Source: a virus (taxonomy: Duplodnaviria; Heunggongvirae; Uroviricota; Caudoviricetes). From it: a DNA stretch of 23,861 nucleotides. The notes under the pieces were generated by a model. The model ran no database searches. It was not told where the DNA came from and saw nothing but the letters and a program-made list of their open reading frames with translations. The stretch is taken from positions 1 through 23,861 of the IMG/VR virus record IMGVR_UViG_2579778956_000004, one strand, 5' to 3'. This document shows, in pieces, positions 1 to 23,345 of the stretch (positions within the stretch are counted from its first letter, which is position 1; every line of letters begins with the position of its first letter). The position numbers and the translations under genes were made by a program.

Positions 1-1251
1 GTGCTTACCGATACAAAATTAAAAAACCTCAAGCCGCAGGACAAACTGTACAAGGTCTCCGATCGTGACGGGCTGTATGTAGCTGTGCTTACGTCAGGCA
101 CGGTCTCGTTTCGCTATGACTACCGTATCAACGGTCGCCGCGAAACACTGGTAATCGGGCAGTATGGGCGTGACGGTATCAGCCTGGCAGAAGCGCGAGA
201 AGAACTGATTGCTGCAAAGAAGCTGCTTAAAGCAGGTCAGTCGCCGGCTACGGCTAAACGTGACGGTATCAAAAAGATTCGTGGTGCCGAGACGTTTGCG
301 GTACATACCGACAGTTATATGAAACACGTCATCTTGGCTGACAGTACCCGCGCAATGAAGCAGGCGGTGATCGACCGTGACATACTTCCGGTTCTTGGCA
401 ACAAAATGATGGCTGAAATTACCACATCGATGGTTCGTGATTTGTGTGACCGGATTGTCGAACGCGGTGGTCGGGCAACAGCAGTACAGGCCAGGGAGAT
501 CATCAGCAGCGTATACCGTCACGCCAATGACCGTGGTCATGGTTTGTTTAATCCTGCGGCTGATATTAAGCCTTCATCTATCGCCATATTTAAACCACGA
601 GAGCGAACGCTGACACCAGAAGAAATTGGTCTTTTCTTCCGCACGCTGGATGCCATTGGTGCTATGGGCACTATGAAAATGGCTTTAAAACTGCTGCTTA
701 TCACTATGGTTCGTAAGGGCGAATTCACCAATGCAACGTGGGATGAAATAGATTTTAAAAAATGGACATGGACAATTCCTTCAGACCGCATGAAGGGAAG
801 CCGGGCGCATGTTATTTACCTGCCTAAACAGGCACAGGATATATTGGTCGGGTTGCAGATGTGCGCTGGTGGAAGTGAATATCTGGTTCCTGGTCGTTAC
901 AATTTCCGGAAGCCATTATCTAATGCCGCGCTGAACTCTCTGATCGACAGAACGGTGAAAATAATAAATGAAGATGGTGAGCATATTCAGGATTTTACCG
1001 TACACGATATGCGCCGTACAGCCAGTACGTTGTTGCATGAGGCTGGTTATCCTTCAGACTGGATTGAAAAGGCTCTGGCACATGAGCAGAAAGGTGTGCG
1101 CGCCGTATATAACAAAGCGGAATACGCCAGACAGCGCGCCTACATGTTGCAGCAGTGGGCCGATATGATTGATTCCTGGATTAACGGCGAGCATACGGAT
1201 CTGATTCCGTTCTCCCCGTCGAAGTTTGAGAAGTGGATGGCGGGGGAATAA
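1..1251 (+). CDS. int: Tyrosine recombinase / phage integrase, P4-like family
   Basis: 416-aa ORF starting GTG at position 1. N-terminus MLTDTKLKNLKPQDKLYKVSDRDGLYVAVLTSGTVSFRYDYRINGRRETLVIGQYG matches the arm-binding domain typical of P4-type integrases. C-terminal part has the HDMRRTASTLLHEAGY and RAVYNKAEY region, consistent with the catalytic His-x-x-Arg and Tyr. The true start may lie just outside the window. Confidence 0.88.
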   Translation: MLTDTKLKNLKPQDKLYKVSDRDGLYVAVLTSGTVSFRYDYRINGRRETLVIGQYGRDGISLAEAREELIAAKKLLKAGQSPATAKRDGIKKIRGAETFAVHTDSYMKHVILADSTRAMKQAVIDRDILPVLGNKMMAEITTSMVRDLCDRIVERGGRATAVQAREIISSVYRHANDRGHGLFNPAADIKPSSIAIFKPRERTLTPEEIGLFFRTLDAIGAMGTMKMALKLLLITMVRKGEFTNATWDEIDFKKWTWTIPSDRMKGSRAHVIYLPKQAQDILVGLQMCAGGSEYLVPGRYNFRKPLSNAALNSLIDRTVKIINEDGEHIQDFTVHDMRRTASTLLHEAGYPSDWIEKALAHEQKGVRAVYNKAEYARQRAYMLQQWADMIDSWINGEHTDLIPFSPSKFEKWMAGE

Positions 1252-2795: not shown

Positions 2796-3239
2796 TTACA
2801 TAGATGTTTCGTTTAATTCTTCCCGACGAACGCTGTAAACGTCGGTGGCTTTTGCCAGCAGTTCGTCATCATCTGAAAGTTTTTGTGCAATGTATTTGTA
2901 AGCCTTATCCAGTTCGGAGACAGTGCTGTAATTCATCGCTGCGCTGGTATCCGCTACATCACGAAGAAATGCTTCTTCGTCAGCTTTACCTTGTTTCGTC
3001 CGACGATCGAACTTCGGTGAAACAATGAAGCGTTTGTCGAATTCTCCAGGCTCCAGAAGCAGACAGTGCAATGCGGTTCCAATATCCAGTGCAGACTTTT
3101 TCTCTTCGTCTTCTGGTGCTGCCTGGACCCATTTAAGAAGCGCCGGATTCTTGGCAACCATGTCCAGTTGCGACTTACTCACGCCGTCACCGGCGTGGTA
3201 GTCTTCGTTGCTGATGTCGAAATAAATTCCCGGTTTCAT
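2796..3239 (-). CDS. RecE-like / PD-(D/E)XK-family nuclease N-terminal domain protein, probably truncated
   Basis: N-terminus MKPGIYFDISNEDYHAGDGVSKSQLDMVAKNPALLKW...GTALHCLLLEPGEF resembles the N-terminal region of exodeoxyribonuclease-VIII-like prophage nucleases. Only 147 aa, whereas this family is usually about twice as long as I recall it. Confidence 0.45.
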   Translation of the reverse strand: MKPGIYFDISNEDYHAGDGVSKSQLDMVAKNPALLKWVQAAPEDEEKKSALDIGTALHCLLLEPGEFDKRFIVSPKFDRRTKQGKADEEAFLRDVADTSAAMNYSTVSELDKAYKYIAQKLSDDDELLAKATDVYSVRREELNETSM

Positions 3240-3843: not shown

Positions 3844-4428
3844 TTATTGTTTGTTTTTTTCGTTCTGGTTGATGACAAATTCAATGTAACTTTCGATCTT
3901 TGCCTTCTCTGTTTCAGGTAACAATGCGTAGCGCGAGCGGTCATAGTTGATAGTTGCAGGATCATGCGGATGAATCAGTAGTTCATATCCGTGACGCCCG
4001 AATGCAGATGCAACATTCTCCAGGGTGGAAATGGAAACGCTGACCTCATTGTTTAACAGGCGGCTTATTGTCACCTGGGCGACGCCGGATGCGCGGTGAA
4101 GTTTTCCCTGAGTTGAAAGGTCGCGGCTTTCACTCATCCAGCGTTCCAGGTTGTGAGCCGCCAGTTGACCAATGTCGCTTGGTCCGACAGGCTGAAAACC
4201 TTCCTGAGAAAGCGAGCGATCGATATCAAGCCAGTTACGGGGTTTATTGGCGGCAGCTTCAATTTTTCGCGCAACCTGGTCGCCGATAACCTTCTTGCCA
4301 AGAGCCCAGCGGTTTACCAGATTTGCCTGAGTTCCAAGTTTTTCAGCCATCCGCGTCTGAACACCATTGAATTCACGGTCGATCAAGTCGTTGAGATTTT
4401 GCCTGCGGACGTCCTGGATACTTTTCAT
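3844..4428 (-). CDS. Prophage repressor, tandem helix-turn-helix, no S24 peptidase domain
   Basis: 194-aa product with two XRE-like HTH segments (TRMAEKLGTQANLVNRWALGKKVIGDQVARKIE and GKLHRASGVAQVTISRLLNNEVSVSISTLENVASAFG). No Ala-Gly/Ser-Lys autocleavage module is recognisable. Divergent from a Cro-like gene across an operator-rich spacer. Confidence 0.7.
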   Translation of the reverse strand: MKSIQDVRRQNLNDLIDREFNGVQTRMAEKLGTQANLVNRWALGKKVIGDQVARKIEAAANKPRNWLDIDRSLSQEGFQPVGPSDIGQLAAHNLERWMSESRDLSTQGKLHRASGVAQVTISRLLNNEVSVSISTLENVASAFGRHGYELLIHPHDPATINYDRSRYALLPETEKAKIESYIEFVINQNEKNKQ

Positions 4429-4883: not shown

Positions 4884-4962
4884 TAAAAACCAAATATGGT
4901 TGATCTTTTTTTTGTGTCAGCACAAAATAACCGTAATCCCAATACTAATAACAGGGCTTACC

Positions 4963-5178: not shown

Positions 5179-5994
5179 ATGAGCAGACATGCAACAGATT
5201 GGGCCTGGGAGACAGATCCAGGTAGCTCGTCATTAAAGCTCATACTGCTCTCGATGGCTGACAGAGCCGATGAATATAACCTCTGCTACCCCAGCATAGA
5301 ACGCCTCGTTAAAGACACTTGCCTGAATAAAAAAACCGTGCAGGCCGGACTTATATCGCTCATGAAAATGGGGCTTATTTCAGATACCGGGGAGAGAAAG
5401 GGAGCGACAAAAAGAGTGCGGGTTTTCTCTCTTAATATAACCAAAAACGGGAACATTAAAGGCAACCGAGAGGGGGGCAATGAACCCGAAAACGGTAATG
5501 TTACCGAAAACGGGAATATACCCAAAAACGGGATGTTGAATGATCCCAAAAACGGGATGTTGAATGATCCCAAAAACGGGATCCAGAACCAGTCATATAA
5601 CCAGTCATTTAACCAAGAGAGGGAGAGCAGGACAAAAAACGGGGATTCTGTGCATCATGACCCCGGCGCAAACAACGCCGTGATGAATAACTTTGTTCCT
5701 CCTGGTGGGTCAGGGCAATTAGGCAAATTTGTCATGCATGAACAATGGCAGCCATCAGATGACTTTCTTCGGAAAAGCTCATTGCAGGGGATCTACCTGG
5801 ACAGTCTGCCAACGGCACAGGAACTTGCAGAGTTCAGAATTTACTGGATGGCTGAGGGTAAGGCATACCATCAGGCACAGTGGGAGCAGAAGCTGGCAAG
5901 GCGGCTGCAGATTAGCAGACAGAAGCAATCAACATTACCTGATAACAACGTTCCGCACTGGAACAGCCCTGAAGCATGGGAGGATTTCTTGTGA
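5179..5994 (+). CDS. Replication initiator, lambda-O-like (N-terminal HTH, repeat-encoded linker, C-terminal domain)
   Basis: SD GGAG before the ATG at 5179. N-terminal LKLILLSMADRADEYNLCYPSIERLVKDTCLNKKTVQAGLISLMKMGLI is HTH-like. The central region is encoded by the iteron repeats. The stop overlaps the next gene start (GTGA at 5991-5994). Confidence 0.7.
   Translation: MSRHATDWAWETDPGSSSLKLILLSMADRADEYNLCYPSIERLVKDTCLNKKTVQAGLISLMKMGLISDTGERKGATKRVRVFSLNITKNGNIKGNREGGNEPENGNVTENGNIPKNGMLNDPKNGMLNDPKNGIQNQSYNQSFNQERESRTKNGDSVHHDPGANNAVMNNFVPPGGSGQLGKFVMHEQWQPSDDFLRKSSLQGIYLDSLPTAQELAEFRIYWMAEGKAYHQAQWEQKLARRLQISRQKQSTLPDNNVPHWNSPEAWEDFL
5441..5645 (+). repeat. Iteron-like direct repeats inside the initiator gene (candidate origin of replication)
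   Basis: Seven copies of an AAAACGG(G/T)A core at about 5443, 5489, 5506, 5524, 5548, 5572 and 5634, including two perfect tandem 24-bp units CCCAAAAACGGGATGTTGAATGAT (5521-5544, 5545-5568). Followed by AACCAGTCAT x2 (5587-5608) in an AT-richer stretch. Confidence 0.6.
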
Positions 5995-8510
5995 ACAACG
6001 TTTTTACCGCGATACAAAACCGTGACGGAGAAGCCCTTTCTCGCATGTCAGGTTATGAGCATCAGTACACCAACAATGACAACGTGGTGAACATGTCAGC
6101 AGAGAGGCTTGTTGATGCCCTTTTCAAACAGCTGAAACAACTGTTTCCGGCGGCAGTGGTAACCAACCTGAAGACGCCAGAGCAGGAAGTTGCTGCAAAA
6201 CAGCAGTGGATTGCTGCGTTTGCCGAAGGTGGGATCCGAACCCGTGAACAGGTTTCTGCTGGTATGCGCCACGCCCGCGCCAGTGAATCTCCGTTCTGGC
6301 CGTCGCCAGGGCAATTCATCAAGTGGTGCAAAGACAGCAAGATGGTTCTTGGCGTCACCATTGACGATGTGATGGCGGAGTTTCACCGGTACAGCAAGGA
6401 AAAAAGTTTATATCCTGGTGGTCCCGAAAGATTCCCGTGGCGGCATCCGGTTATGTACTGGGTCGTATGTGATACCCGCCGTGCAATGTATCAGCGCCAG
6501 CTTAGCGAGATTGAGGTTGAGAAACACGCGCGCAGGCTGCTCGATGATTGGGCGAAAAAGGTGGCTTCCGGACAGCAGATACCCGATCCGGTGATCAGCA
6601 TACAGGCAAAGCCAGAGCCCATGAGTACACCTCCGGACACAGGGAGAGACGTTTACCATCCACCAGGGCGAAGTTTCGGGTGCATGCCTAACGCCGCTAT
6701 TCGCCGTGCAGATAGTAACTACTATCGCGCCGTTACAGCAGGCAAAACAGGTACTTTGCGCCCTTCGCATACAGAAGGCACATCATGGGATGGCTGGGGC
6801 GGATCCGGTGATGATGACACTGGCATTGAGTGGGAATATCTGCACAGTGGTTTTGGCATTGCCCGTATCACTGCTGCAAATGGAACTACTGCAACTGCCG
6901 AGGTGATTTCCTATATCCCTTCGCAGGTAGTTGGCGAGGATAATGCCAGCTATAAATGGGCTAAATATGCCTGGAACAGTGTTAATGGTTATCCTGGCAC
7001 TGTTGTTTATTATCAACAACGTCTTTACTTCGCCGCATCGACTGCGTTCCCTCAGACTATCTGGGCCAGCCGTACTGGGGATTATAAGGATTTTGGCAAA
7101 AGCAATCCTACGCAGGATGACGACAGAATTATCTACACCTATGCCGGGCGTCAGGTTAATGAGATCCGTCACCTGATTGATGTTGGTTCGCTGGTGGCAC
7201 TGACTTCCGGAGGTGAGTACGTCATCACCGGCGACCAGAACAAAGTGTTAACCCCATCATCATTTGCATTCAGCTCTCAGGGATCAAATGGCTCAAGCAA
7301 CGTCCCGCCAATTGCCGTGGCGAATATTGCTTTGTTCGTCCAGGAGAAAGGCAGTGTTGTACGTGATCTGGCCTACTCATTCGATGTTGACGGCTATCAG
7401 GGGAACGACCTGACCATCCTTGCCAATCATCTTTTTCAGAAGCACAGCATTGTTGACTGGTGCTTCTCGATTGTCCCTTACTCCAGCGCCTTCTGCATTC
7501 GTGATGACGGTAAATTGCTGGTGATGACCTATTTGCGTGATCAGCAGGTTTTTGCATGGGCACCACAATCCAGTACCGGGAAATATGAAAGCACATGCAG
7601 TATCAGCGAAGGCAATGAAGATGCGGTGTATTTCGTCGTTAACCGAACCGTTAACGGGCAAACAGTGAGATACATAGAGCGACTGTCCAGCCGTTTATTT
7701 ACCAGCGATGAAGATGCTTTCTTTGTTGATTCTGGCCTTAGCTATGATGGAAGAAATACGTCTGACAGAACGATGACCATCACTGGTGGTTCTGGTGAAT
7801 GGGATTACCGCGCGGAATATACAATCAGTATTTCTGGTGGTGCGTACTTCACCAGTAGTGATGTCGGCGCGCAACTACAGTTCCCTTATGCCGGAACTGA
7901 TCCTGATACTGGCGATGAAGTGTCAAAAGAATTACGTTGCGACATTATTTCTGTAACCAGCAATACCGCTGTAGTGGTTCGTGCTAACAGGAACGTCCCG
8001 CCATCCCTCAGGAATGTGGCCACCACGAACTGGCAGATGGCGCGCCGGACATTTGGCGGCTTGTCTCATCTTGAAGGCCAGACCGTAAACATCCTCTCTG
8101 ATGCGAACGTGGAACCACAGAAAGTGGTTTCCGGAGGTGCCGTCACGCTGGAATCTCCGGGGGCTGTAGTGCACATCGGCCTGCCAATAACTGCTGAATT
8201 CGAAACACTGGATATCAACATTAACGGACAGGAAACGCTGCTGGACAAAAAACAGGTGATCCCGTCCGTTACTCTGGTTGTGAATGCCAGTCGCGGCATC
8301 TGGGCGACTACGCCCGGCGGTAAATGGTACGAATATCCACAGCGTGAATTCGAGTTCTACGATGATCCTGTTGATGACGCTACCGGAAAAGTAGAAGTAA
8401 AACTGGACAGTAACTGGGGCAAAAACGGACGTGTAAGAATCCGTCAGCTTGACCCGTTGCCGCTGTCTGTTCTTGCCGTTATTCCTCGTCTTACTGTTGG
8501 GGGATTCTGA
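5991..8510 (+). CDS. Chimeric ORF: lambda-P-like replication protein N-terminal region continuous with about 600 aa of structural-type (tail-tube-like?) sequence
   Basis: Start assigned to GTG 5991, with SD GGGAGGA 6 nt upstream and coupled to the O-like stop. The first ~215 aa include KQQWIAAFAEGGIRTREQVSAGMRHARASESPFWPSPGQFIKWC, which closely parallels lambda P as I recall it (RQWVLAFRENGITTMEQVNAGMRVARRQNRPFLPSPGQFVAWC). The remainder is a Gly/Ser/Thr-rich sequence with no intervening stop, and its stop overlaps the next gene start. Confidence 0.6.
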   Translation: MNNVFTAIQNRDGEALSRMSGYEHQYTNNDNVVNMSAERLVDALFKQLKQLFPAAVVTNLKTPEQEVAAKQQWIAAFAEGGIRTREQVSAGMRHARASESPFWPSPGQFIKWCKDSKMVLGVTIDDVMAEFHRYSKEKSLYPGGPERFPWRHPVMYWVVCDTRRAMYQRQLSEIEVEKHARRLLDDWAKKVASGQQIPDPVISIQAKPEPMSTPPDTGRDVYHPPGRSFGCMPNAAIRRADSNYYRAVTAGKTGTLRPSHTEGTSWDGWGGSGDDDTGIEWEYLHSGFGIARITAANGTTATAEVISYIPSQVVGEDNASYKWAKYAWNSVNGYPGTVVYYQQRLYFAASTAFPQTIWASRTGDYKDFGKSNPTQDDDRIIYTYAGRQVNEIRHLIDVGSLVALTSGGEYVITGDQNKVLTPSSFAFSSQGSNGSSNVPPIAVANIALFVQEKGSVVRDLAYSFDVDGYQGNDLTILANHLFQKHSIVDWCFSIVPYSSAFCIRDDGKLLVMTYLRDQQVFAWAPQSSTGKYESTCSISEGNEDAVYFVVNRTVNGQTVRYIERLSSRLFTSDEDAFFVDSGLSYDGRNTSDRTMTITGGSGEWDYRAEYTISISGGAYFTSSDVGAQLQFPYAGTDPDTGDEVSKELRCDIISVTSNTAVVVRANRNVPPSLRNVATTNWQMARRTFGGLSHLEGQTVNILSDANVEPQKVVSGGAVTLESPGAVVHIGLPITAEFETLDININGQETLLDKKQVIPSVTLVVNASRGIWATTPGGKWYEYPQREFEFYDDPVDDATGKVEVKLDSNWGKNGRVRIRQLDPLPLSVLAVIPRLTVGGF

Positions 8511-8974
8511 TGATCGATGTTCGAATTATTCCCGCTACCGAAGAGCATCTTCAGATGATTTTGCCGGATGTTCGTCAGGCTGATATTGACGAACTGTATG
8601 CGGTATCACTGATGACTACCGAAGATGCGCTGCGTGTTGGTCTGCGTACTGCGACTATGGCCTGGTCAGGATTTGCGAACGGAGAACTGGTAACCATGTT
8701 TGGCGTATCTCCGGCGTCAATGATCGGTGGCAATGGTACGCCCTGGCTGGTCGGAACCAGCCGTATTGAAAAATATCAGAAGACATTTCTTCGCCACTGC
8801 CGCCCTGTATTGCAGCAGATGCTGGCAGTTTATCCGCGCCTGGAAAACTATGTCGACGAGCGAAACCATGTTGCCAAAGCATGGCTGCACTGGCTTGGAT
8901 TCAGGCTTGAAGAAGCCGCGCCTTATGGTGCACTTGGTCTTAATTTCCACAGATTTCACATGGAGAGCAAATAA
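8510..8974 (+). CDS. Small virion-associated protein, T7 gp13-like by position and size (hypothetical)
   Basis: 154-aa ORF whose ATG overlaps the upstream stop (TGATG). Position and size match the gp13 slot of a T7-like gp12-gp17 series. No motif recognised. Confidence 0.45.
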   Translation: MIDVRIIPATEEHLQMILPDVRQADIDELYAVSLMTTEDALRVGLRTATMAWSGFANGELVTMFGVSPASMIGGNGTPWLVGTSRIEKYQKTFLRHCRPVLQQMLAVYPRLENYVDERNHVAKAWLHWLGFRLEEAAPYGALGLNFHRFHMESK

Positions 8975-9549
8975 TGTGCGATCCGGTTATTGCTGGTGGC
9001 GCAATGCTCGCCATGAGTGGCATTCAGGCATACACCCAGTACCAACAGGGAAAGTATGCCTCGAAGGTTGCAGAAGCGAACGCAGATATAGCCACAGCTC
9101 AGGCAAATGATGCAATAAACAGAGGTAACGCTGAAGCTGAGCAACGGCGCAGAGAGACCCGACAGCGGCTTGGTACACAGGCAGCGACAATGGGGGCTAC
9201 CGGCGCTGATTTATCTACAGGTAACGCGCTGGATATATTTGGTGACACTGCTCAGTTTGGCGCTCTTGATTCGCTAACGACGGTGAATAACGCGCAACGC
9301 GAGGCTTACGGTTATCAGGTTCAGGCTGCCAACTATAAAGCAGAAGCCAGTTCAGCCCGTAAACAGGGGAATGTGGGAGCAGCAACAACTTTACTCACTG
9401 CGCCTCTGAAGGCATACGGTGCGTACCAGATGTTTGGTGGGACGTGGAGTCCGTTCTCTAAAGGAAGTACATCTAGTGGTGGGACGCCAATGTTATCTAA
9501 CTCAGGTTTTATGAATTCTGACTCCCGATTCAAAATAGGAGGTTACTGA
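8974..9549 (+). CDS. Internal virion protein, T7 gp14-like
   Basis: 191 aa, begins MCDPVIAGGAMLAMSGIQAYTQYQQGKYASKVAEANADIATAQ. Ala/Gln-rich with an N-terminal Met-Cys, similar in size and composition to T7 gp14 as recalled. Start overlaps upstream stop (TAATG); SD GGAGAG. Confidence 0.5.
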   Translation: MCDPVIAGGAMLAMSGIQAYTQYQQGKYASKVAEANADIATAQANDAINRGNAEAEQRRRETRQRLGTQAATMGATGADLSTGNALDIFGDTAQFGALDSLTTVNNAQREAYGYQVQAANYKAEASSARKQGNVGAATTLLTAPLKAYGAYQMFGGTWSPFSKGSTSSGGTPMLSNSGFMNSDSRFKIGGY

Positions 9550-12062
9550 TGCCTGTTGTTCCTACTACATCCGGACGCCAGGTTGAGAGCCGTGGAGTTC
9601 AGTCAGCAGGCTTGCAGACGTTTTCTCAGCCAGGTATTGGTGATGCTTTTGTTCGGGCAGGGACAGAGGCAATTGATGTTTTGGGGCAGGCAAAACAGCG
9701 TGCCAATATCGCTCTGGCTCAGGAGGCATCTCTTAACCTCAGTCAGATAAGCAGTGATCTGCTGAATAACCCTGAAACAGGTTTGCTTAACCTGAAAGGG
9801 AAAAATGCTATTGGAAAAGGCCATGAGTATACGCAGCAGTTTGATGCTCAGGTCGAACAACTGGCTATGTCGCTGCCGGATGAACAGGCTCGTAATGCTT
9901 TCATGCAGCAGGCGCAGCAGCAGCGCATTCAGTTCACTACGCAGGCCGGGCGGCACGAGATAGGGCAAATTAATGCCTACGAAGAAGGTCAGTTTCAGGC
10001 GACGCTGCTGAACAATGGTAAAAATGCCGCAGCATTGTATGGCGACAATGCCGCATACGTATTGGCTAATAAGCAAACTTTCCAGCAAATTGAGGAGTAC
10101 GGTGCTGCACATGGCTGGAGCGACGAGCAAATACAGGCCAAGAAAATCGAGTTTAAAGAGAAGGTTGCTGATGCAGCATTGTCCCAGTGGTCGGCAAACA
10201 ATGCGACCGCATTCATCCAAAGTAATGGCGAGTTAAGTGATACTGCTGCTGGAGCTCGCCGTGCTGTAACAGATAGTGGCTCTTCCGAGCGTGTCCGTGG
10301 CATACGCAACAATAACCCCGGAAATCTCGAATATAGCAAAACTAATCCGTGGGTAGGCCAGACCGGTGATGATGGTAGATTTGCTAAATTCGAAACACCT
10401 GAACACGGGATTCGTGCATTAGGGCGGAACCTGATGTCGTATCAGCGGCAGGGTATTGATACCGTCAGCGAGATAATTAATCGCTGGGCACCGCCTACTG
10501 ATAAAAATGACACTATGTCGTATATCAAAGCAGTGTGCGAACAACTTGGCGTTTCTGCTGATGAGCCTCTCGATGCATCAAATCCTGATACCCTGAAGGC
10601 GCTTTGTGCAGCCATTATCCATCATGAGAACGGTAGCCAGCCATACAGTGATCAGCAGTTAACTGCTGGTGTCAGTGCAGCACTTGGTTTATCAACAATT
10701 CCAACCAACACCAAACGCTATACCGGTAATGCAGCATTCGATGCGGCATCTCCTGAGGCTCAGGCAAGTTTTATGCGGCAGGCGGATCAACTGCGTCGGC
10801 AGCAGCAGGCTGAATATAAAACGATGATTGACAGCCAGGTTCGCGATGCGACGGCTGCGTATATGCGTGGCGTTGAATTTCCTAACCCACCTGGTGAGGC
10901 TGATTTTATTGCAGCTTATGGAGTCAGAGAAGGAAACCTGCGATATACCGAGTTTAAGAATACGCAGATCGCCGGACAGTATATAGGCTCTTTCCGCAAC
11001 ATGCCGACAAGCAGCATTACAGCATATGTTGAGCAATTACGCCCGGATACTGGTGAAACAGGGGAGGGGTATGCGGCACGCGCAGCTCTTTATGACAACG
11101 TTGTTTCGGCTGCAAATCAGGTGATAAAGCAGCGGCAGTCGGATCCTGTGCAGTTCTCTCTTGCCTCCGGACAGACAAAGCCTATCGACATGAGCAATAA
11201 GGATAACTTTGGACAGAGCGTTGCCTTGCGTGCCGCTCAGGTCAGTGACCTTGCTAAGTCATATGGCACTCCACTGACGTTCTTTTCCAAAGACGAGGCC
11301 AATCAGATCGGTGTTTTCTTTCGTGATGCTCCAGTTTCCCAACAGGCAGCATATCTCGATACCATCAGGCAGAGCACTGGTGGTGGGCAGGTGTATATGT
11401 CAGCACTACAGCAGATCAGTGCCAACGCTCCATCTGCTGCCGTTGCCGGGATACTGATGGATAAGCCAGGTGGTATTTTGGCAGAAAAAAACTGGTTTAA
11501 TCCGGATGTTTCCGTGTCTCCTGAAACCGCTGCGCAGACAATTCTTGCTGGCGCGGCGGCTCGTAAAGGTACTGATGACGCGAAAGGTATTCCGATGCCT
11601 AAAGATGCTGATCTCCGCCTTGAGTTTTCTGACATGGTGAAGGATGCATTTGCTGGTGATGCTCAGGGGGCATCAATGGCATACGAGATCGCAAAGGACT
11701 ATTACGCTGGTGTGATGGCGAAAAAAGGCGTGGTATCAGGCGAAATTGACAATGATATCTGGAAACAGGCTGTTAACGTAGCTACAGGTGGCGTGCATGA
11801 CTATAACGGAATGGGGAATGTTCTTTTGCCGTGGGGAATGTCTGCAGAGCAATTCGATAAGCAGGTTAATCAGGCTTGGAATGAACAAGTTGTTGGCACA
11901 GGGATAAAAACACCGCCTGGTCAGTATGGTTTGCAAAGTTACGGCGATAGTCAGTACCTGGTGAAACTTGGTACTGGTTATCTGCTAAAAGATGATGGTT
12001 CTCCCGTTGTTCTTGATCTGACACAGAAGCGTCAGAGATTCTCCGGAGATATTCCGCAATGA
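9549..12062 (+). CDS. Large internal virion / ejection protein (T7 gp15/gp16-like) with a possible cell-wall-hydrolase-like segment
   Basis: 837 aa; SD AGGAGG; start overlaps upstream stop (TGATG). Residues ~250-350 contain RGIRNNNPGNLEYSKTNPWVGQTGDDGRFAKFETPEHGIRALGRNLMSY, which looks like a conserved enzymatic module, but I cannot assign the family without a search. Confidence 0.6.
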   Translation: MPVVPTTSGRQVESRGVQSAGLQTFSQPGIGDAFVRAGTEAIDVLGQAKQRANIALAQEASLNLSQISSDLLNNPETGLLNLKGKNAIGKGHEYTQQFDAQVEQLAMSLPDEQARNAFMQQAQQQRIQFTTQAGRHEIGQINAYEEGQFQATLLNNGKNAAALYGDNAAYVLANKQTFQQIEEYGAAHGWSDEQIQAKKIEFKEKVADAALSQWSANNATAFIQSNGELSDTAAGARRAVTDSGSSERVRGIRNNNPGNLEYSKTNPWVGQTGDDGRFAKFETPEHGIRALGRNLMSYQRQGIDTVSEIINRWAPPTDKNDTMSYIKAVCEQLGVSADEPLDASNPDTLKALCAAIIHHENGSQPYSDQQLTAGVSAALGLSTIPTNTKRYTGNAAFDAASPEAQASFMRQADQLRRQQQAEYKTMIDSQVRDATAAYMRGVEFPNPPGEADFIAAYGVREGNLRYTEFKNTQIAGQYIGSFRNMPTSSITAYVEQLRPDTGETGEGYAARAALYDNVVSAANQVIKQRQSDPVQFSLASGQTKPIDMSNKDNFGQSVALRAAQVSDLAKSYGTPLTFFSKDEANQIGVFFRDAPVSQQAAYLDTIRQSTGGGQVYMSALQQISANAPSAAVAGILMDKPGGILAEKNWFNPDVSVSPETAAQTILAGAAARKGTDDAKGIPMPKDADLRLEFSDMVKDAFAGDAQGASMAYEIAKDYYAGVMAKKGVVSGEIDNDIWKQAVNVATGGVHDYNGMGNVLLPWGMSAEQFDKQVNQAWNEQVVGTGIKTPPGQYGLQSYGDSQYLVKLGTGYLLKDDGSPVVLDLTQKRQRFSGDIPQ

Positions 12063-13861
12063 GTTACTTTGGCCTTAATCCAGTAAACCAGAATCAGCAG
12101 CTTGACGAAGCAGCATCAAATCCAGCTGGCTTTAACAGCGATGTTGGTTTTTTCGACAATGCTGTAGGAGCGGCATTGTCTGGTTTGTACTCCGGGCTGG
12201 TGGCAAAGCCAGATCAGTTGCTCTGGGCAGGGATGGATAAAATCGTATCCCCGATTGCTCAGTTTGTTAACGAAAACACCTCGCTCAATGACACTTCAGT
12301 TTCATACGTTGCCGAGCAGAGAAAACTAGCAGAGCAGCAGGTTAAGCGGCTGACGCCTGATGCCGCGACAACCGGAACCGCCGGGCAGGTTCTTTATGGG
12401 TTGTTCGATATGGGCGGGCAGGCTGTTGTCGGTACAACGCTCGGTGGTCCTGTCGGAGGTGCAGCGGCGGTAACTTCGCTACAGGGTTTTTCTGAGTTTG
12501 AACGGCTGACAGCACAGGGTGTTGATTTCAGGACGGCGCAGGAAGCGGGATTAGTGCAGGGCATTACTGCTGGTGCCGGAACACTGATCCCTATGAGCCT
12601 CGGGTTACGTGCTGGTGGTGCGCTGGCGGAAGGTGTGGCGGCTCAGCTTGCGCGGACGGGTGAGAGTTCAGTGCGACGCGCCGCAGCAACAGCAGTACGT
12701 GCAACGCCAGATATTGCCTATGCCGCAGGTACAAATATTGCGTTCGGTATGGCACAGCGTGGGCTTACTGCAAAAACACTTCGTGATGGTGGCTATAGCG
12801 AAATGGCTAACCAGTATGATGTGTTGGATCGACAGGCAATTGCTATTGATGCTGTTCTTGGGGTGGCGTTTGGTGGTGTCGGCAGATTTATTAACTCTCG
12901 CGGCGAGTCTACAAACGCACCAAATTTTTCACCAGTTGATATCGATGCTGCACTGGCGGCGAATGCCGCTCATCATGCTGAAATTGATATTGCGCCCGGC
13001 GTGCCGATCAACGTGCTTTCGCGCAATTCTCACATTCAGGCTCTGCGAAAAGCTATGTCTGATGTTAGCCAGGGGAGACCTGTAGACGTTGCCAGCATTG
13101 TTGAGTCTGCATCTTTCAGTGAAATTCCTGGGCGCAAGAGTCTGCTGTCTCAGGCAGTTAATGAGGCTCTGTCATCTGTAGATGATGGAGTAACGGCGCG
13201 CGCTATAGAAAATCGGTTGCTTGAAGAACAGGCCGCGCAGCTTTTGCCGCGTGGAGATAGACAGGTTTACCAGTCTGAAATCGCTAATAGCCAACGAATT
13301 ATTGAAAATCTCACTGAACAGCGTGCACAAATTCTTGCAGAAGAGCCAACCGGTAGCGGTAAAGCTTTGTCTCGTGCTCGATCAGATAAACAGGCCAGAC
13401 TTCGCGATATTGATCAACGAATCCGGCAGGCACAAGAACGCCTGGAATTTTCCCGTAACGCGTTGGCACCGCACGAGCCTGGCGGTCAGTTTTTTGAAGC
13501 TCGAGCAGAACTGGCTCGGAGACAGCAGGCAGAAAGTGAACTTAATGCTCAGGCTGTTTCATTCTATAAAACAGCAGAGGTCAGGACGCCAGACGAAGTA
13601 GCTCCTTTTGAGCCTGATAAAATATTGCAACAGGCAGAACAAAAAATGATGTCAGATCCGGCAGGAGATATTGATCTGCGCATAGCTGAAGACTCGCTGC
13701 TTGAATCACCTGACATGATAATCACCGTGCTGGATGATGATGGTAATCCACAATCGCGCAGTGCGCGTGAAGTACTGGATGAAGCGAACAGGGAAAGTGA
13801 GCAGGCAATACAGGATTCCAGCCTGTTTGATGTTGCTGTGGCGTGTTTCTTGAGAGGTTAA
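12059..13861 (+). CDS. Large internal virion / ejection protein (Gly/Ala-rich)
   Basis: 600 aa; start overlaps upstream stop (ATGA). The N-terminal half is Gly/Ala-rich and hydrophobic (GTTLGGPVGGAAAVTSLQG...), the C-terminal half charged and coiled-coil-like. Consistent with a core/ejection protein. Confidence 0.55.
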   Translation: MSYFGLNPVNQNQQLDEAASNPAGFNSDVGFFDNAVGAALSGLYSGLVAKPDQLLWAGMDKIVSPIAQFVNENTSLNDTSVSYVAEQRKLAEQQVKRLTPDAATTGTAGQVLYGLFDMGGQAVVGTTLGGPVGGAAAVTSLQGFSEFERLTAQGVDFRTAQEAGLVQGITAGAGTLIPMSLGLRAGGALAEGVAAQLARTGESSVRRAAATAVRATPDIAYAAGTNIAFGMAQRGLTAKTLRDGGYSEMANQYDVLDRQAIAIDAVLGVAFGGVGRFINSRGESTNAPNFSPVDIDAALAANAAHHAEIDIAPGVPINVLSRNSHIQALRKAMSDVSQGRPVDVASIVESASFSEIPGRKSLLSQAVNEALSSVDDGVTARAIENRLLEEQAAQLLPRGDRQVYQSEIANSQRIIENLTEQRAQILAEEPTGSGKALSRARSDKQARLRDIDQRIRQAQERLEFSRNALAPHEPGGQFFEARAELARRQQAESELNAQAVSFYKTAEVRTPDEVAPFEPDKILQQAEQKMMSDPAGDIDLRIAEDSLLESPDMIITVLDDDGNPQSRSAREVLDEANRESEQAIQDSSLFDVAVACFLRG

Positions 13862-13866
13862 ATTAA

Positions 13867-16341
13867 ATGAGACAGGAATGTATACAAGCGGTCCAGCAGG
13901 CGGCGCAGCGCACGTTAACGGAGCGAGAAATACAGAACATTGAAGACCGCATTTATCGAAATATGCGCTCCATTGCTCGTGATGACCCGATGTCGTGGAG
14001 ACAACTTTCCGAATCAGAGCGGCTATATCGAGCAGCACAATTGGCATCTGAAGAATTACAGCGAGAAGCGGCATTAAAGAAACGTCGTGTGGCCCTCACT
14101 ATAGCCGCACGTCAGAGATTGGATAAATTTATCAATAGCTATCAAGGGGCTGATGGGAAACTTGGCGCTCTTAACCGTACTATTGCTTTTAATGCAGACG
14201 GTAAATCGAATTTCCTCTCTGTTGAGTCCAGAACAAAAGCCACTCGTGATTATGCATTGAGTCAATTGCAGGAGGCATTTGAAGCAGTTGATCCTCGCTT
14301 TTTTGGCCTGTTTGAAGATGAAGCTGGCGTACGTGACCTGGTATATGAAATGCGAGGGCAAAATACTGGCAATGCTAAAGCAAGAAAAGGTGCTAAGGCG
14401 TGGAGAGAAGTGACAGATCTACTGCGCCGCCGGTTTAATGATGCTGGTGGGGACATTGGCTATCTCGAAAACTGGGGGATCCCTCAACATCATTCTATGG
14501 AAAAGGTTGGGGCGGTATCAAAGGATAAGTGGGTTAGCGATGTTATAGGTAAGCTGGATCGCAAATATTATATCCGAGCCGATGGACAACTGATGAACGA
14601 TGCCGAGTTGTCTGCATTTCTTGGAGAGGCTTATAACACGATCGCTACAGGTGGGCTGAATAAGCTTACTGATACCGGAATGCGAATTTCCGGCGCACGT
14701 GCTAACCGTGGTAATGCATCACGACAGATACATTTCAAAGATGCAGATTCCTATCTGCAATATCAGCAACTTTATGGCGATCGCTCTCTATGGGAAATCA
14801 TGGTCGGTCACCTTGAAGGTATCAGTAAAGATATTGCACTGGTGGAAACATATGGCCCAAACCCCGATCATGTTTTCCGCTCTCTTCTTGATCAGGTGAA
14901 GGCAGAAACGGCAACAGCTAACCCGAGTAAAACCGGTAAAGTCGAGCGGCTGGCGAACAACACAGAGAATCTGTACAACTTTATTTCCGGAAAGACACAG
15001 CCTGTAGCGAATCCGCACATCGCGCGATGGTCTGACAATATCCGCAACTGGTTGGTTGCCAGCAGACTCGGATCCGCGTTGCTGTCATCGTTCTCTGACC
15101 TTGGAACCATGTATCTGTCTGCGAAGGTTACCAACCTTCCAATGAACCAGTTATTCCGCAACCAGCTTGAAGCTATGGACCCAACGAACCGTACAGAACT
15201 TGCGCGGGCGCGCCGCGCTGGTCTGGCGATGGAATCTCTACTTGGCAGCGTTAACCGCTGGGCGATGGATAATATGGGGCCGTCTGTGTCTCGTTGGGCT
15301 GCAACGGCGGTAATGCGTGCCAGTGGGCTTACAGCATGGTCAGATGCGCACAAGCGCGCCTATGGCGTAACCATGATGGGAAGCCTGGGAGAAGTAGTGT
15401 CACGGACACCAGACCTTCGTAGCCTCGATGATTCTGATTTTCGTATCCTGAAAAGCAAAGGGATTACTGACACAGACTGGAGCGTATGGAAGCTGGCGCA
15501 ACAGGAGGACTGGGGGAACGGCAATAATACGATGCTGACACCGGAAAGCATTATGCGTATCCCTGATTCAGCAGTTAAACATCTTGGTGAGCCTGAACGC
15601 GTGAAATTTGAGGCAACGCGCAAACTGCTCGGTGCCGTAACTGAAGAAGTTGATATGGCTGTTATTACACCGGGAGCACGTGAGCAACTGATAACCGGTT
15701 CTGGTATTCAGCGTGGAACATGGAAAGGTGAATTAACGAGAAGTGTTTTCCTGTTTAAATCGTTCCCTATCTCGGTGGTTATGCGTCACTGGTCACGCGC
15801 TATGGGTATGCCGTCTGCTGGTGGGCGTGCGGCATATATTGCGACGTTTATTGCCAGTACGACCATTCTTGGCGCTTTGTCGCAGCAACTTAACGACCTT
15901 GCGTCTGGTCGTAATCCTCGCGAGATGACAGGAGAAGATGCTGCTAAATTTTGGCTTGGTGCTCTACTGAAAGGTGGTGGTCTTGGCCTTTACGGTGACT
16001 TTTTATTGTCAGATCACACTAGGTACGGAAGCGGCGCGCTGGCGTCGATGCTTGGCCCGGTAGCTGGTCTGGTTGATGACGTAGTGAAGATTGCTCAGGG
16101 CATACCGTTAAATGCTGTGGAAGGGAAGAGTGAGCAGACTGGTGGTGATCTGGTTAAGCTTGGGAAGGGGCTGATGCCAGGTGCAAATCTCTGGTACTTG
16201 AAGGCGGCTCTCGATCACATGATTTTTAACCAGATGCAGGAGTATTTTTCACCAGGCTATTTGCGTAAAATGGAGCAACGTTCGAAGAAAGAGTTTAACC
16301 AGACATACTGGTGGCGACCTCAGGATGTCACTCCGCAATAA
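13867..16341 (+). CDS. Large internal virion / ejection protein
   Basis: 824 aa; SD GAGAGG precedes the ATG at 13867. Last gene of the tightly coupled structural series. No specific motif recognised. Confidence 0.55.
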   Translation: MRQECIQAVQQAAQRTLTEREIQNIEDRIYRNMRSIARDDPMSWRQLSESERLYRAAQLASEELQREAALKKRRVALTIAARQRLDKFINSYQGADGKLGALNRTIAFNADGKSNFLSVESRTKATRDYALSQLQEAFEAVDPRFFGLFEDEAGVRDLVYEMRGQNTGNAKARKGAKAWREVTDLLRRRFNDAGGDIGYLENWGIPQHHSMEKVGAVSKDKWVSDVIGKLDRKYYIRADGQLMNDAELSAFLGEAYNTIATGGLNKLTDTGMRISGARANRGNASRQIHFKDADSYLQYQQLYGDRSLWEIMVGHLEGISKDIALVETYGPNPDHVFRSLLDQVKAETATANPSKTGKVERLANNTENLYNFISGKTQPVANPHIARWSDNIRNWLVASRLGSALLSSFSDLGTMYLSAKVTNLPMNQLFRNQLEAMDPTNRTELARARRAGLAMESLLGSVNRWAMDNMGPSVSRWAATAVMRASGLTAWSDAHKRAYGVTMMGSLGEVVSRTPDLRSLDDSDFRILKSKGITDTDWSVWKLAQQEDWGNGNNTMLTPESIMRIPDSAVKHLGEPERVKFEATRKLLGAVTEEVDMAVITPGAREQLITGSGIQRGTWKGELTRSVFLFKSFPISVVMRHWSRAMGMPSAGGRAAYIATFIASTTILGALSQQLNDLASGRNPREMTGEDAAKFWLGALLKGGGLGLYGDFLLSDHTRYGSGALASMLGPVAGLVDDVVKIAQGIPLNAVEGKSEQTGGDLVKLGKGLMPGANLWYLKAALDHMIFNQMQEYFSPGYLRKMEQRSKKEFNQTYWWRPQDVTPQ

Positions 16342-16350
16342 GGAAGTGTT

Positions 16351-16524
16351 GTGTTTTTAATTATTTTGAGTGTGATAATTTCTGTTGGGTTGTTATTTAT
16401 TGACCGCTACAAATATTTTCTTAACCCTCAGACTCAAGCTATTTGCTGGTTCATCTTTGTTGTGCAGGGAGTAGTTCTTGTTGCAAGCCTTATTGAGGGG
16501 AGGCCTCTTATTTTTACTGGGTAA
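16351..16524 (+). CDS. Small hydrophobic protein (57 aa), putative membrane protein
   Basis: Not in the ORF track. GTG 16351 with AGGAAG 4 nt upstream. Product VFLIILSVIISVGLLFIDRYKYFLNPQTQAICWFIFVVQGVVLVASLIEGRPLIFTG has two predicted hydrophobic helices. Confidence 0.3.
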   Translation: MFLIILSVIISVGLLFIDRYKYFLNPQTQAICWFIFVVQGVVLVASLIEGRPLIFTG

Positions 16525-16536
16525 ATAGGTGACTAC

Positions 16537-16833
16537 ATGCAAGCTATAGGATTCATTGTTTATATCGTCGTTGGTCTTTTTCAGTTGGCAGCAATTATGG
16601 CTGGGCTTGAATCATGGTGGGGATTGCACTGGATAATTGCAGCCCCCATTGCTTTCATCGTGAGCTATATTCCATTTGTTGGAGCGATTGTTGGTATGGT
16701 TGGCGCTGTGGATGTATGGCGGTGGGAGTGGTGGCAGGCTGGCCTTCTCTTCTTTGGTGGGATCATCTTTGCTATTGTCTGCGGTGGAATGTCATCATTT
16801 TTCGAATGGCTATCATTCAGAAAAGGGACGTGA
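16537..16833 (+). CDS. Small integral membrane protein (98 aa)
   Basis: Three hydrophobic segments (IGFIVYIVVGLFQLAAIMAGL; WIIAAPIAFIVSYIPFVGAIVGMVGAV; GLLFFGGIIFAIVCGG) with Trp-rich loops. Followed by a terminator. Confidence 0.5.
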   Translation: MQAIGFIVYIVVGLFQLAAIMAGLESWWGLHWIIAAPIAFIVSYIPFVGAIVGMVGAVDVWRWEWWQAGLLFFGGIIFAIVCGGMSSFFEWLSFRKGT

Positions 16834-16842
16834 CATGTCACA

Positions 16843-16866
16843 GGCCGCTTTCGCGGCCTTTTCTTT
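16843..16866 (+). terminator. Rho-independent terminator after the small membrane genes
   Basis: GGCCGC-TTTC-GCGGCC stem-loop followed by TTTTCTTT. It overlaps the stop codon of the convergent minus-strand gene. Confidence 0.5.
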
Positions 16867-17317: not shown

Positions 17318-19480
17318 ATGACGGTCTCAACCGAAGTTGACCACAACGAATACACAGGTAACGGCGTTACGACATCGTTTCCGTATACTTTTCGAATTTT
17401 CAGAAAATCAGACCTGGTTGTTCAGGTGTCTGACCTGAACGGGAACATCACAGAGCTGATTCTTGATACTGATTATACAGTTACGGGTGCTGGTGGGTAT
17501 TCTGGTGGCAATGTAATACTGATGTCGGCACTTGCAAACGGATACCAAATTTCCATTTCGCGTGAGTTGCCGGTGACGCAGGAAACCGATCTCCGTAATC
17601 AGGGTAAGTTCTTCGCAGAAGTGCATGAGGATGCTTTTGATAAACTGACTATGCTGATTCAGCAGGTACGCAGCTGGTTAAGTCTGGCCCTCAGAAAGCC
17701 TTCGTTCGTGGCTAACTATTATGATGCTCTTAATAACTACATCAGAAACCTGCGAGATCCTTCACGCCCGCAGGATGCGGCAACTAAAAATTATGTTGAT
17801 AGCGTTGCAGATACAAACCTCAACAAAACACTAAGAACACCGGAAGCTATTCAATCTCTTCCTGATGCGATTTCCAGGGCAAACAAAATTGTTGCTTTTG
17901 ATAGCGCTGGTCAGCCATTTGCAACACTACCCCCATCAGGTAGCGCCACCGATGTGTTAATTGAGCTGGCAAAGCCTACTGGAGCGGGATTATCAGGGTT
18001 CGATAAGTCAGTTGATTACGCCGGTGGTACGGTTGGTAGTGAGCTAAAAAATGTTATATTCGTCAATCCTGATATGTATTCAACATTGCAGGAGGCGATT
18101 GATTATGCAGCATCTTTAACAGGGCTGGAACATTCTCCAAGTAGTGCAGCTGGGCATCCAGACTGGATACAACCAAATACTGTATGCAAAGTTGTCAGAT
18201 TAAATGGAAAGAAATACCCCATAAACACAACATTACATGTTTACGGTGATGTAAGCATAGATGCAGAATTTGGAGGGGTATATCTCACGGATGACTTCAT
18301 AGCAGATTCTTCTGGGTATGCTGTTAAATGCGATAAAGGAACAGGTAATCAATACGCTGGGCACATTAGCAATCTTTTAATTGACGCCCGCGCAAAGACT
18401 GTTAATGGATTTAAAATATCTGATGGTTATGCCAACAAGTTAGATGGCATTTACGTAGCCAACGTTGATGGTCATGGCATTCATATTGCTGGAGGCATGG
18501 GTGTGCACCTCATGAAATTCTATGCTATCAGCGTATTAAAACCTACGAATCCACTTAGTCAGGCACACATCATAGAAGGAAGCGATCACCATATTAGTAT
18601 GGGTGAAGGCAGATATTTCAGATTCGGAACGTGGGTTAGGAATGGTGGAAATAACAGGCTTAATAACGTACATAACTGGGGAATGTATGACGATACAGTG
18701 GCCGACCAAAACTCAAGAATGAAATGTTGCTTTGTTGTACAAAATTCTATAAACAACTCATTTAATCAATGTTTTGCAGATTCACCATCAAAATGGGATT
18801 ACACAAAAACAAATTTAGCTCCTGTTGATGGTTATATTAATGGTGGGATTGGTTTCTTCGTTGATAGTGGCGCTACCGGGAATATATTCTCTCAGTGTCA
18901 AACGTTCGTTAACATGAATGCTTATAATTCTGCCGGTCTCTCAAGTTATACTGCGGCGTTATATCCATTTCTTGTAGGTAGTGCGAATTGTGGATTTTCT
19001 TTATGTGAAAACTCAAACAGCCCAGCATGGGTTGGTAAATGTATAAATCATGTTTCTGGGGTGGCTCAAGAGTTCACAAATGCTGTGGGGACAAAAAATT
19101 TCGTTGGCATAGAAGACGACATGCATGCTAACAGGACTTTTTTCAGAAAAGGAGTTGGTGTTCCAATTATCTCGTATGTTATTAAAACAGAAACAGCAGG
19201 AAGCACTTATGTTGCTGATTTTTCATTGTCTTCTTATATTTCAATAACATGCAACTCTAACATTAGTATATCCGTTGCGACACTCAGTAACCCGCCAATA
19301 GGATATACTGAATGTACACTTTCAGTGTTTTCCGCATCATCAAAACTGATCACCTTTACAGGATCTGTTACGCTTGCGAAAAATACACCATCACTAAATG
19401 AATCCGGAACTCAGGTGTTCCGGATGTCAACTGCTGATGGCGGGGCTACTTGGTATGCGAGACTTGTAGCGAACTATTAA
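17318..19480 (+). CDS. Tailspike / tail fiber with T7-gp17-like N-terminal anchor domain and a distinct C-terminal receptor-binding region
   Basis: 720 aa; SD GGAG. N-terminus EYTGNGVTTSFPYTFRIFRKSDLVVQVSDLNGNITELILDTDYTV follows the conserved pattern of the T7 gp17 N-terminal domain shared by podovirus tailspikes. The C-terminal two-thirds are visibly more AT-rich and Asn/Gly/Ser-rich, consistent with a beta-helical receptor-binding domain. Confidence 0.8.
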   Translation: MTVSTEVDHNEYTGNGVTTSFPYTFRIFRKSDLVVQVSDLNGNITELILDTDYTVTGAGGYSGGNVILMSALANGYQISISRELPVTQETDLRNQGKFFAEVHEDAFDKLTMLIQQVRSWLSLALRKPSFVANYYDALNNYIRNLRDPSRPQDAATKNYVDSVADTNLNKTLRTPEAIQSLPDAISRANKIVAFDSAGQPFATLPPSGSATDVLIELAKPTGAGLSGFDKSVDYAGGTVGSELKNVIFVNPDMYSTLQEAIDYAASLTGLEHSPSSAAGHPDWIQPNTVCKVVRLNGKKYPINTTLHVYGDVSIDAEFGGVYLTDDFIADSSGYAVKCDKGTGNQYAGHISNLLIDARAKTVNGFKISDGYANKLDGIYVANVDGHGIHIAGGMGVHLMKFYAISVLKPTNPLSQAHIIEGSDHHISMGEGRYFRFGTWVRNGGNNRLNNVHNWGMYDDTVADQNSRMKCCFVVQNSINNSFNQCFADSPSKWDYTKTNLAPVDGYINGGIGFFVDSGATGNIFSQCQTFVNMNAYNSAGLSSYTAALYPFLVGSANCGFSLCENSNSPAWVGKCINHVSGVAQEFTNAVGTKNFVGIEDDMHANRTFFRKGVGVPIISYVIKTETAGSTYVADFSLSSYISITCNSNISISVATLSNPPIGYTECTLSVFSASSKLITFTGSVTLAKNTPSLNESGTQVFRMSTADGGATWYARLVANY

Positions 19481-20594: not shown

Positions 20595-20772
20595 TACTCA
20601 ATCCTGTTTTATACGTAATTTATTTCATTTTAAATGCTAAACCATCCACAGTCACTCAGTTCTATGCCGCGTTTGTGTTTTTTGTGGCTAGACATCAGGT
20701 AATTTACTCCATATATGGTTTATTGTGTATGATGAACTCACCAACTAAGGGGGTTTTTATGCACAGTAAACG

Positions 20773-22594: not shown

Positions 22595-22721
22595 TTTCCG
22601 GTGACGGTATATAAAACGGTACGGTGAAAATCAGGTTGCAGAAAGTTGTTATCAGTCAATTGGTTATGGTATCCGTAAATAATTGAGTGGGAATGATTTT
22701 AATCCCTGCACTATGAATGAA

Positions 22722-23330: not shown

Positions 23331-23345
23331 GACTCCTCCTGATTA

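Follow-up and report, generated by a model that had tools for sequence, protein, structure and literature searches.

An uninterrupted reading frame in a 23,861-nt stretch of viral DNA (IMG/VR record IMGVR_UViG_2579778956_000004, positions 1 to 23,861; the whole of this stretch is referred to as the window) raises the question of whether a replication protein and a virion protein have been combined into one functional polypeptide or whether two genes were brought into one frame by the loss of the DNA between them. The window is a phiV10-like (Uetakevirus) prophage of Escherichia coli at the 3' end of guaA. The reading frame (5991 to 8510, plus strand) encodes 839 amino acids (aa) and consists of residues 1-236 of a lambda-P-type helicase loader, followed by residues 221-823 of a tail nozzle protein. 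It is very likely a non-functional deletion scar in a defective prophage and not a designed protein. A first-pass annotation made from the letters alone had suggested an in-frame deletion joining the early replication operon to the tail and ejection genes, with a genuine bifunctional protein as the alternative; the deletion is borne out by a nearly identical intact prophage in E. coli 2017.15.01CC.

Comparison with the intact prophage

The prophage of E. coli 2017.15.01CC (NZ_AP021890.1) occupies the same guaA/yfgI site and is 12,304 bp longer between P and the nozzle gene. Aligned to it, the window falls into three blocks of 2,949 nt (100% identity), 3,753 nt (one poly-A length change) and 17,167 nt (two real mismatches). 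Deletions of 12,304 bp and 1,316 bp are the sole structural differences, and the junction flanks are 100% and 99.98% identical. Besides the deletions, the two prophages differ only in a one-base length change in an intergenic poly-A tract (4885-4890) and in substitutions at 15144 and 17233.

The P-nozzle junction is located at 6698-6699, at a TA present in both parents (left GCCGCTA|CCCTGG, right GGCGATA|TTCGCC, product GCCGCTATTCGCC). It shows 2 bp of microhomology, colinear flanks and zero foreign DNA. The deleted span opens with base 1 of P codon 237 and closes with base 3 of nozzle codon 220. In both genes the T of the junction is a third and the A a first codon base; since the two TAs are in the same codon phase, the frames join. 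A junction had been anticipated near codons 220-235, and the actual one is found after P codon 236 (236/237).

The lost DNA comprises 25 P codons, the terminator annotated after P in phiV10 (phiV10 35038-35057), the genes for DUF1064 and DUF551 proteins, small early genes and the homologue of phiV10p55 ("transcriptional regulator"). Also lost are the genes for TerS, TerL, Gp49, a tRNA-Arg, the portal, the protease, the major capsid protein, the cement and staple proteins and a 201-aa protein in the adaptor slot, together with nozzle codons 1-220. Hence, the late control, packaging and head genes that the first-pass annotation considered removed are all contained in the 12,304 bp extra in 2017.15.01CC, where the intact arrangement with terminase, portal and capsid genes at this position was found. 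A complete packaging, head and tail module is not present in the window, as TerS, TerL, portal, protease, major capsid protein, cement, staple and adaptor all belong to the deleted interval.

Chimeric pseudogenes that arose by deletion in defective prophages, such as the cryptic prophages of E. coli in general, are the comparison class. Like them, the window has lost morphogenesis genes and shows colinear flanks with a short microhomology where they meet. The difference is that the frames match here, whereas PGAP gives related out-of-frame scars the label "incomplete; partial in the middle of a contig". Being in frame, the chimera in RefSeq escapes the pseudogene flag.

Distribution and extent of the fused reading frame

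The exact 839-aa protein was found on four contigs and could be placed in GCA_000511565.1, GCA_958307585.1 and the Logan assembly ERR2116728. It is on record in public protein collections (WP_025651144.1, "replication protein P [Escherichia coli]", UniRef n=5) and forms a singleton cluster at 90% identity, while P and the nozzle are two separate genes in all intact relatives, which speaks against the bifunctional protein named as the alternative. The junction was detected in none of 5,426 complete E. coli genomes, 540 of which hold both halves separately. GCA_958307585.1 and ERR2116728 share the P-nozzle junction and carry one further, different deletion each. Since the same junction occurs in assemblies that differ by other deletions, these are independent assemblies of diverging descendants, in which decay continues, and, as far as sequence data can show, not the product of an artefact.

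The frame is free of stops over 839 codons up to its TGA, as had been noted from the translation. The earliest in-frame start after the upstream stop is ATG 5976, which would give 844 aa according to the list of open reading frames; this longer version was absent from public protein collections in an exact-protein look-up. In phiV10 the annotated P start corresponds to GTG 5991, which shares bases with the stop codon of the O-like gene before it (GTGA). Both RefSeq and UniRef label the chimera simply as "replication protein P".

The helicase loader part

The P-derived part (5991 to 6699, plus strand) retains lambda P domains I-III and part of the linker, and the last 25 residues of the 261-aa parent are gone. 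Pfam PF06992 (Phage_lambda_P) is matched over profile positions 2-162 of 162 (E-value 1.9e-55; score 187.5 bits, cut-off 26) and PHROG 109 ("P-like helicase loader") over positions 2-210 of 236. The likeness to lambda P assigned to the first ~215 aa was confirmed by comparison with solved structures, where residues 1-204 align with lambda P 1-202 (PDB 8V9T, E-value 1e-30), including SPFWPSPGQFIKWC. As with lambda P (PF06992; PDB 6BBM and 8V9T), the gene follows an O-like initiator gene with overlapping stop and start; in contrast to it, the C-terminal tail is replaced by 603 nozzle residues.

The phiV10-type P can be aligned to lambda P only as far as residue 204. The 25 residues removed from the parent, TLGGITPAQWLMEEYRRGKAAGFIK, form the C-terminal tail of the phiV10-type P. 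Lambda P consists of four domains, of which domain IV (193-233) is a C-terminal lasso whose helix inserts itself between the DnaB elements DH and LH and shears the interface of the two (PMC12661323). By position, TLGGITPAQWLMEEYRRGKAAGFIK is the equivalent of the lambda P lasso helix, and the C-terminal lasso or grappling-hook element at the position of domain IV is therefore missing from the fusion, an equivalence that is positional only. The chimera is probably unable to load DnaB, judged from the position of the loss. Because 25 C-terminal residues are lost and 603 foreign residues are carried, it is likely not a working helicase loader, and therefore the element would not be able to replicate from the origin in the O-like gene.

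The tail nozzle part

The C-terminal 603 residues (6698 to 8510, plus strand) correspond to residues 221-823 of an 823-aa nozzle protein. The structural character ascribed to these ~600 aa is corroborated by PHROG 376 ("tail protein", profile positions 216-712 of 712) and by PDB 8CK1_A ("Tail Nozzle"), to which fusion residues 251-838 align over chain positions 247-828 with an E-value of 2.6e-145. The intact parent nozzle aligns with 8CK1_A end to end (residues 2-822), whereas the alignment of the fusion begins only at residue 251. Full-length nozzle homology (~820 residues) is thus not found in the fusion, in which residues 1-220 are absent; the ~180 missing N-terminal residues estimated earlier turn out to be 220 when the intact parent is compared. 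More than 100 nozzle homologues in the protein database, from many Enterobacteriaceae, are stand-alone proteins of 819-827 aa.

The earlier placement of this part in the slot of tail tubular protein B (T7 gp12) stands with regard to the structural match and to the gp13-slot and gp14-family genes downstream. The designation as a T7 gp12 counterpart is inferred from the gene order and from the depositor's name "nozzle", and a literature search on the phage behind PDB 8CK1 returned no relevant paper. As in the podovirus tail nozzle (8CK1_A), the gp13-slot and gp14-family genes follow, so that of the order adaptor, nozzle, internal virion proteins the downstream genes are present. The difference is that residues 1-220 and the 201-aa adaptor-slot gene ahead of them are deleted here.

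Probable consequences for the prophage

A single illegitimate recombination removed 12,304 bp and joined the TA at P codons 236/237 to the TA at nozzle codons 220/221. P, left without its 25 C-terminal residues and with 603 foreign ones, would have lost helicase loading and origin replication. The nozzle fragment lacks its N-terminal quarter, and the adaptor, portal, capsid and terminase are gone, which leaves none of the partners required for a head or a tail hub. No virion or tail is expected to form, since the nozzle is truncated and the adaptor, portal, capsid and terminase genes are missing. The element is unable to be a viable phage. All of this is ordinary prophage decay: the window is a recently disarmed remnant that is still decaying.

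The fusion is located directly 3' of the O-like initiator gene (5179 to 5994, plus strand; helix-turn-helix HTH_36 and DnaT domains), the stop of which overlaps the fusion start, and is coupled to it. This gene holds repeated hairpins at 5529-5572, which consist of two tandem copies of a 20-nt hairpin-forming, iteron-like repeat (TGGGATCATTCAACATCCCG on the minus strand). The repeats are probably origin iterons, as in lambda, and would mark a putative origin. On the other side, translational coupling to genes resembling T7 gp13 and gp14 had been suggested and is seen in the overlap of TGA 8508-8510 with ATG 8510 of the next gene. This gene encodes an internal virion protein (PHROG 308), and the second gene after the fusion matches Pfam T7_gp14. 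The internal virion or ejection genes are intact from 8510 to 16341 on the plus strand (gp13-slot 8510-8974, gp14-like 8974-9549, then 9549-12062, 12059-13861 and 13867-16341). Between the fusion and the ejection genes no terminator is annotated and none is predicted above chance. The terminator after P and the homologue of the late regulator are deleted, and therefore the fusion and the ejection genes are now part of the early rightward operon, which is under control of the repressor. The prophage repressor gene (helix-turn-helix protein, 3844 to 4428, minus strand) is divergent from this operon. The fusion and the ejection genes are predicted to be transcribed only upon derepression, from the early rightward promoter.

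Further deletions in this lineage

A second scar of the same kind is located at 2796 to 3239 on the minus strand, where a 1,316-bp deletion with a TA junction at 2948-2949 has joined the N-terminus of a RecE-like nuclease to the C-terminus of RecT in frame. The product has 147 aa, its RecE-like part being a PD-(D/E)XK nuclease, and the parental sites are GCTGGTA|AAGG and CCCCATA|TCCG. The sister assemblies show two more in-frame deletions. One (locus L003 12546-12552, equivalent to window 8541 to 14571) removed 6,036 bp at a TA junction and produced a fused frame of 598 aa, the other (locus L004 5782-5784, window 11336 to 14533) removed 3,199 bp at a GTT junction and produced a frame of 1,197 aa. 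The additional deletion in GCA_958307585.1 joins at TA. Both sister deletions end at most 40 bp apart in the gene of the 824-aa virion protein, and a P fusion from another lineage (P0150) has its end in the 45-bp stretch in which both of them end. A further candidate, L017 (P0008), was rejected as a deletion derivative; it is a diverged relative with 75% identity.

Deletions at TA sites in related prophages

The TA at the window junction recurs in deletions of related prophages; the loci considered are window 6698-6699 and L003, L006-L013, L016 and L018. In a protein search, other fusions onto the nozzle gene were found that are independent deletions, two of them starting from the portal gene, one from an early gene and one from P at another codon. 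Given in coordinates of the intact prophage read in window orientation, one of these fusions ends at the nozzle TA used in the window (24707) and two at a TA 34 bp upstream (24673). A DNA search of complete genomes added scars in CP024275, ETEC4070, ETEC4079, ETEC4075 and AF56, one of which reuses 24673. Altogether, nozzle site 24707 was used twice, nozzle site 24673 three times and a site at P codons 161/162 at least ten times.

The latter site, TACCCGCCG (6473 to 6481, plus strand), is unused in the window and forms the left end of at least ten different deletions elsewhere in E. coli. In public assemblies, at least ten different fusions or truncations break after the residues VVCD (TGTGATA|CCCGCCG), the next residue always being encoded by a codon starting with A. 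The partners are the staple, TerS, DUF551, hyp40, tailspike, 824-aa virion protein and nozzle genes. In the complete genome of E. coli AF56, P is broken at the same hot-spot base, where it is joined to an internal part of a tail-fibre gene. Breakage at the hot spot is rare (3 out of 535 complete genomes with this P region). A separate 2,628-bp deletion in AF56 (NZ_OZ546963.1, L018 1963-1968) has a GTA junction and links the early left operon with an MT-A70 methyltransferase gene, the parental sites being CCCGGTA|TACC and CTCCAGTA|CTTC.

Between 8 of 13 and 9 of 14 junctions of the first set end in TA, compared to 2.9% expected (p ~5e-10), the expectation being derived from simulated random breakpoints on the intact prophage with a microhomology of at least 2 bp. 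Among the junctions examined after the idea had been formed, 8 of 10 have a TA end. GATAYYCGCCGTGCA is common to the site at P codons 161/162 and the nozzle site of the window. In the 36-kb intact prophage there are three copies of the motif TAYYCGCCG, and each of them is a deletion endpoint; the copies in the window are located at 6473-6481 (unused) and 6698-6706 (junction). Moreover, 20 of 24 endpoint sites have CNNNTA on one strand or both, compared to 44% of all TA sites (p 8e-5), and in 10 of 17 events the two partner sites carry it on one and the same strand, compared to 12% expected. The window junction itself has CCGC|TA on the top strand at the left and CGAA|TA on the bottom strand at the right site, hence on opposite strands. 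The evidence that independent deletions in phiV10-like prophages favour TA sites, CNNNTA and TAYYCG(CCG) is statistically strong and reproducible. No description of such a TA-site deletion signature was found in the literature searched.

Alternative explanations

A genuine bifunctional protein, that is a helicase loader with a structural or other domain at its C-terminus which is kept for its function, could account for a frame that is uninterrupted and coupled on both sides and for a complete Pfam P domain. The presence of other P-X and X-nozzle fusions in the protein database might be taken in the same sense, but these differ in their partner and each is itself a deletion scar. Moreover, the fusion is a singleton cluster confined to near-identical E. 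coli assemblies, the nearest relative has the two genes 12.3 kb apart, both halves lack terminal parts of their parents, and the downstream genes are being lost in sister lineages. A designed protein is therefore very improbable. Even less credit, close to none, can be given to a misassembly joining two parts of an intact prophage. That the source is a draft assembly and that the junction occurs in 0 of 5,426 complete E. coli genomes would fit an artefact, but four contigs of 15-119 kb (from GCA_000511565.1, GCA_958307585.1, Logan ERR2116728 and one more) share exactly this junction, and these assemblies differ from each other by other deletions. In addition, an overlap of 2 bp is too short to drive a k-mer misjoin, and analogous scars exist elsewhere in complete long-read genomes. 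The scar might also have been fixed by selection, as the deletion disarms a lethal prophage (P activity, late activator, morphogenesis) and keeps functions useful to the host, namely repressor immunity, the O-antigen acetyltransferase and possibly the tailspike and lysis genes. This would be consistent with the intact state of the retained genes (2 mismatches in 17.1 kb), with the annotation of oac in phiV10 as a superinfection-immunity function and with P as a recurrent deletion target; lambda P is described as toxic to the host (PMC4926192). On the other hand, the near-identity to the intact relative leaves no time for a signature of selection, sister strains are deleting the retained late genes, and few complete genomes (3 of 535 with this P region) have P broken at its hot spot. 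Selection is possible, but a role for it is rather doubtful.

A few points count against the frame being a mere non-functional scar. The equivalence of the lost 25 residues to the lasso is a weak one, based on position and a weak resemblance with no significant alignment. As the Pfam P domain is complete, partial activity may persist, such as O binding, DnaB binding via domain III or a dominant-negative effect. Furthermore, four out of four deletions of the lineage are in frame, with a chance probability of ~0.04 for the three that had not been picked by the first-pass annotation, and this run could hint at selection for continued translation. Out-of-frame deletions were common in related prophages in the DNA search (the cement-nozzle deletions in CP024275 and ETEC4070 and a 446-bp nozzle deletion in SRR27315052). 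A general in-frame bias was dropped, since the DNA-search deletions elsewhere are out of frame and the fusions from the protein search are biased to in-frame products.

Concerning the agent behind the TA pattern, the deletions might be the work of an enzyme, such as E. coli topoisomerase I, whose cutting and rejoining of DNA takes place at TA sites with C as the fourth base before the T, and which would act repeatedly on phiV10-like prophages. The frequency of TA-ended junctions in the first set and afterwards, the reuse of exact sites, the frequency of CNNNTA at endpoints and on the same strand of both partners, and the occupation of every TAYYCGCCG copy are in accordance with such an activity. 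According to Sutormin et al. (2022, PMC9352719), E. coli topoisomerase I, which works on single strands, has the in vivo cleavage motif TCNTTA/T, in which a C occupies the fourth position before the TA. This motif resembles the CNNNTA at the deletion endpoints. However, the published motif is AT-rich, whereas the endpoint sites are G+C-rich just upstream of TA, and the link between enzyme and deletions is a resemblance of motifs. Moreover, the motif is a post hoc one, the junction of the window does not show it on one strand at both of its sites, and the junctions from the protein search are biased to in-frame products and particular positions. Such an enzyme as the cause is conceivable, with the balance of arguments leaning against it. 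As a tentative proposal from sequence comparison, the phiV10-like prophages might undergo a site-preferential erosion, with breaks at C(-4) TA, strongest at TAYYCG(CCG) sites such as P codons 161/162 and nozzle codons 220/221, that are rejoined across kilobases. The fusion would then be one of its products, and the pattern could be the footprint of illegitimate recombination by a type IA topoisomerase in natural genomes.

Several other causes were considered and rejected. Gyrase in combination with quinolones cuts before G with a 4-bp stagger (PMC6379681), which does not match TA junctions flanked by bases from different parents. The hairpin GGCGA-TAT-TCGCC at the nozzle site and the palindrome TACCGGTA do not qualify as a general cause, as most other endpoints are asymmetric. 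For a palindromic restriction-type site (CNNNTANNNG), the discarded flanks are far less conserved than the full site needs. A deletion mediated by the integrase and att sites is not supported either, since none of the endpoints coincides with an att site and the junction sites have no relation to the 17-bp core. Finally, no insertion sequence and no foreign DNA was found at any junction examined, which does not fit deletion mediated by insertion sequences.

The reading frame itself is of little significance, as it represents a known kind of event and RefSeq already lists the protein, though under a name that misleads. The case is a clean one that can be dated: by an in-frame deletion, two phage genes became a single frame, which pipelines annotate as a normal protein. 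Such chimeras can mislead surveys of domain architectures. If the rule of TA with C(-4) and of reusable hot spots is true, prophage decay would be partly predictable and a specific enzyme could be tested, with topoisomerase I as the candidate for which a matching motif is published.

The prophage and its integration site

The window is 100% identical to contig AYKE01000014.1 of GCA_000511565.1, between guaA and yfgI, with a flank that is 100% E. coli. Both halves of the fusion match phiV10 in colinear blocks of 97.6-98.6% identity, with a jump from phiV10 34953 to 9719. A P4-type tyrosine integrase is encoded at 1 to 1251 (plus strand). The 17-bp att core, which is common to phiV10, epsilon15 and ZX5 (PMC9782041), was found at both prophage ends: the attL core, at the 3' end of guaA, precedes window position 1 by 191 bp, and the attR core ATTGAGTGGGAATGATT at 22682 to 22698 (plus strand) forms the right end. 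The host genes yfgI and yfgH follow after attR (22791-23861). The integrase, both att cores, the repressor, the tailspike, the O-acetyltransferase and the lysis genes are retained intact. Gene order, integrase and the att core at the guaA 3' end are shared with phiV10 and the Salmonella phage epsilon15 (Uetakevirus); in contrast to these, the window lacks 12.3 kb from the end of P to nozzle codon 220 and 1.3 kb in recE/recT.

Three stretches (16345-16865, 17838-20709 and 22239-22583) have no megablast match to phiV10. They represent the region after the 824-aa gene, which is without the Bro-N gene, the C-terminal end of the tailspike together with the acyltransferase, and a portion of the Rz-like gene. 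This suggests an O-antigen specificity module other than that of phiV10. The window opens exactly at the integrase start codon and closes at the yfgH start codon, which indicates that it was cut at gene boundaries; attL is thus outside, and the right ~1.1 kb are host DNA.

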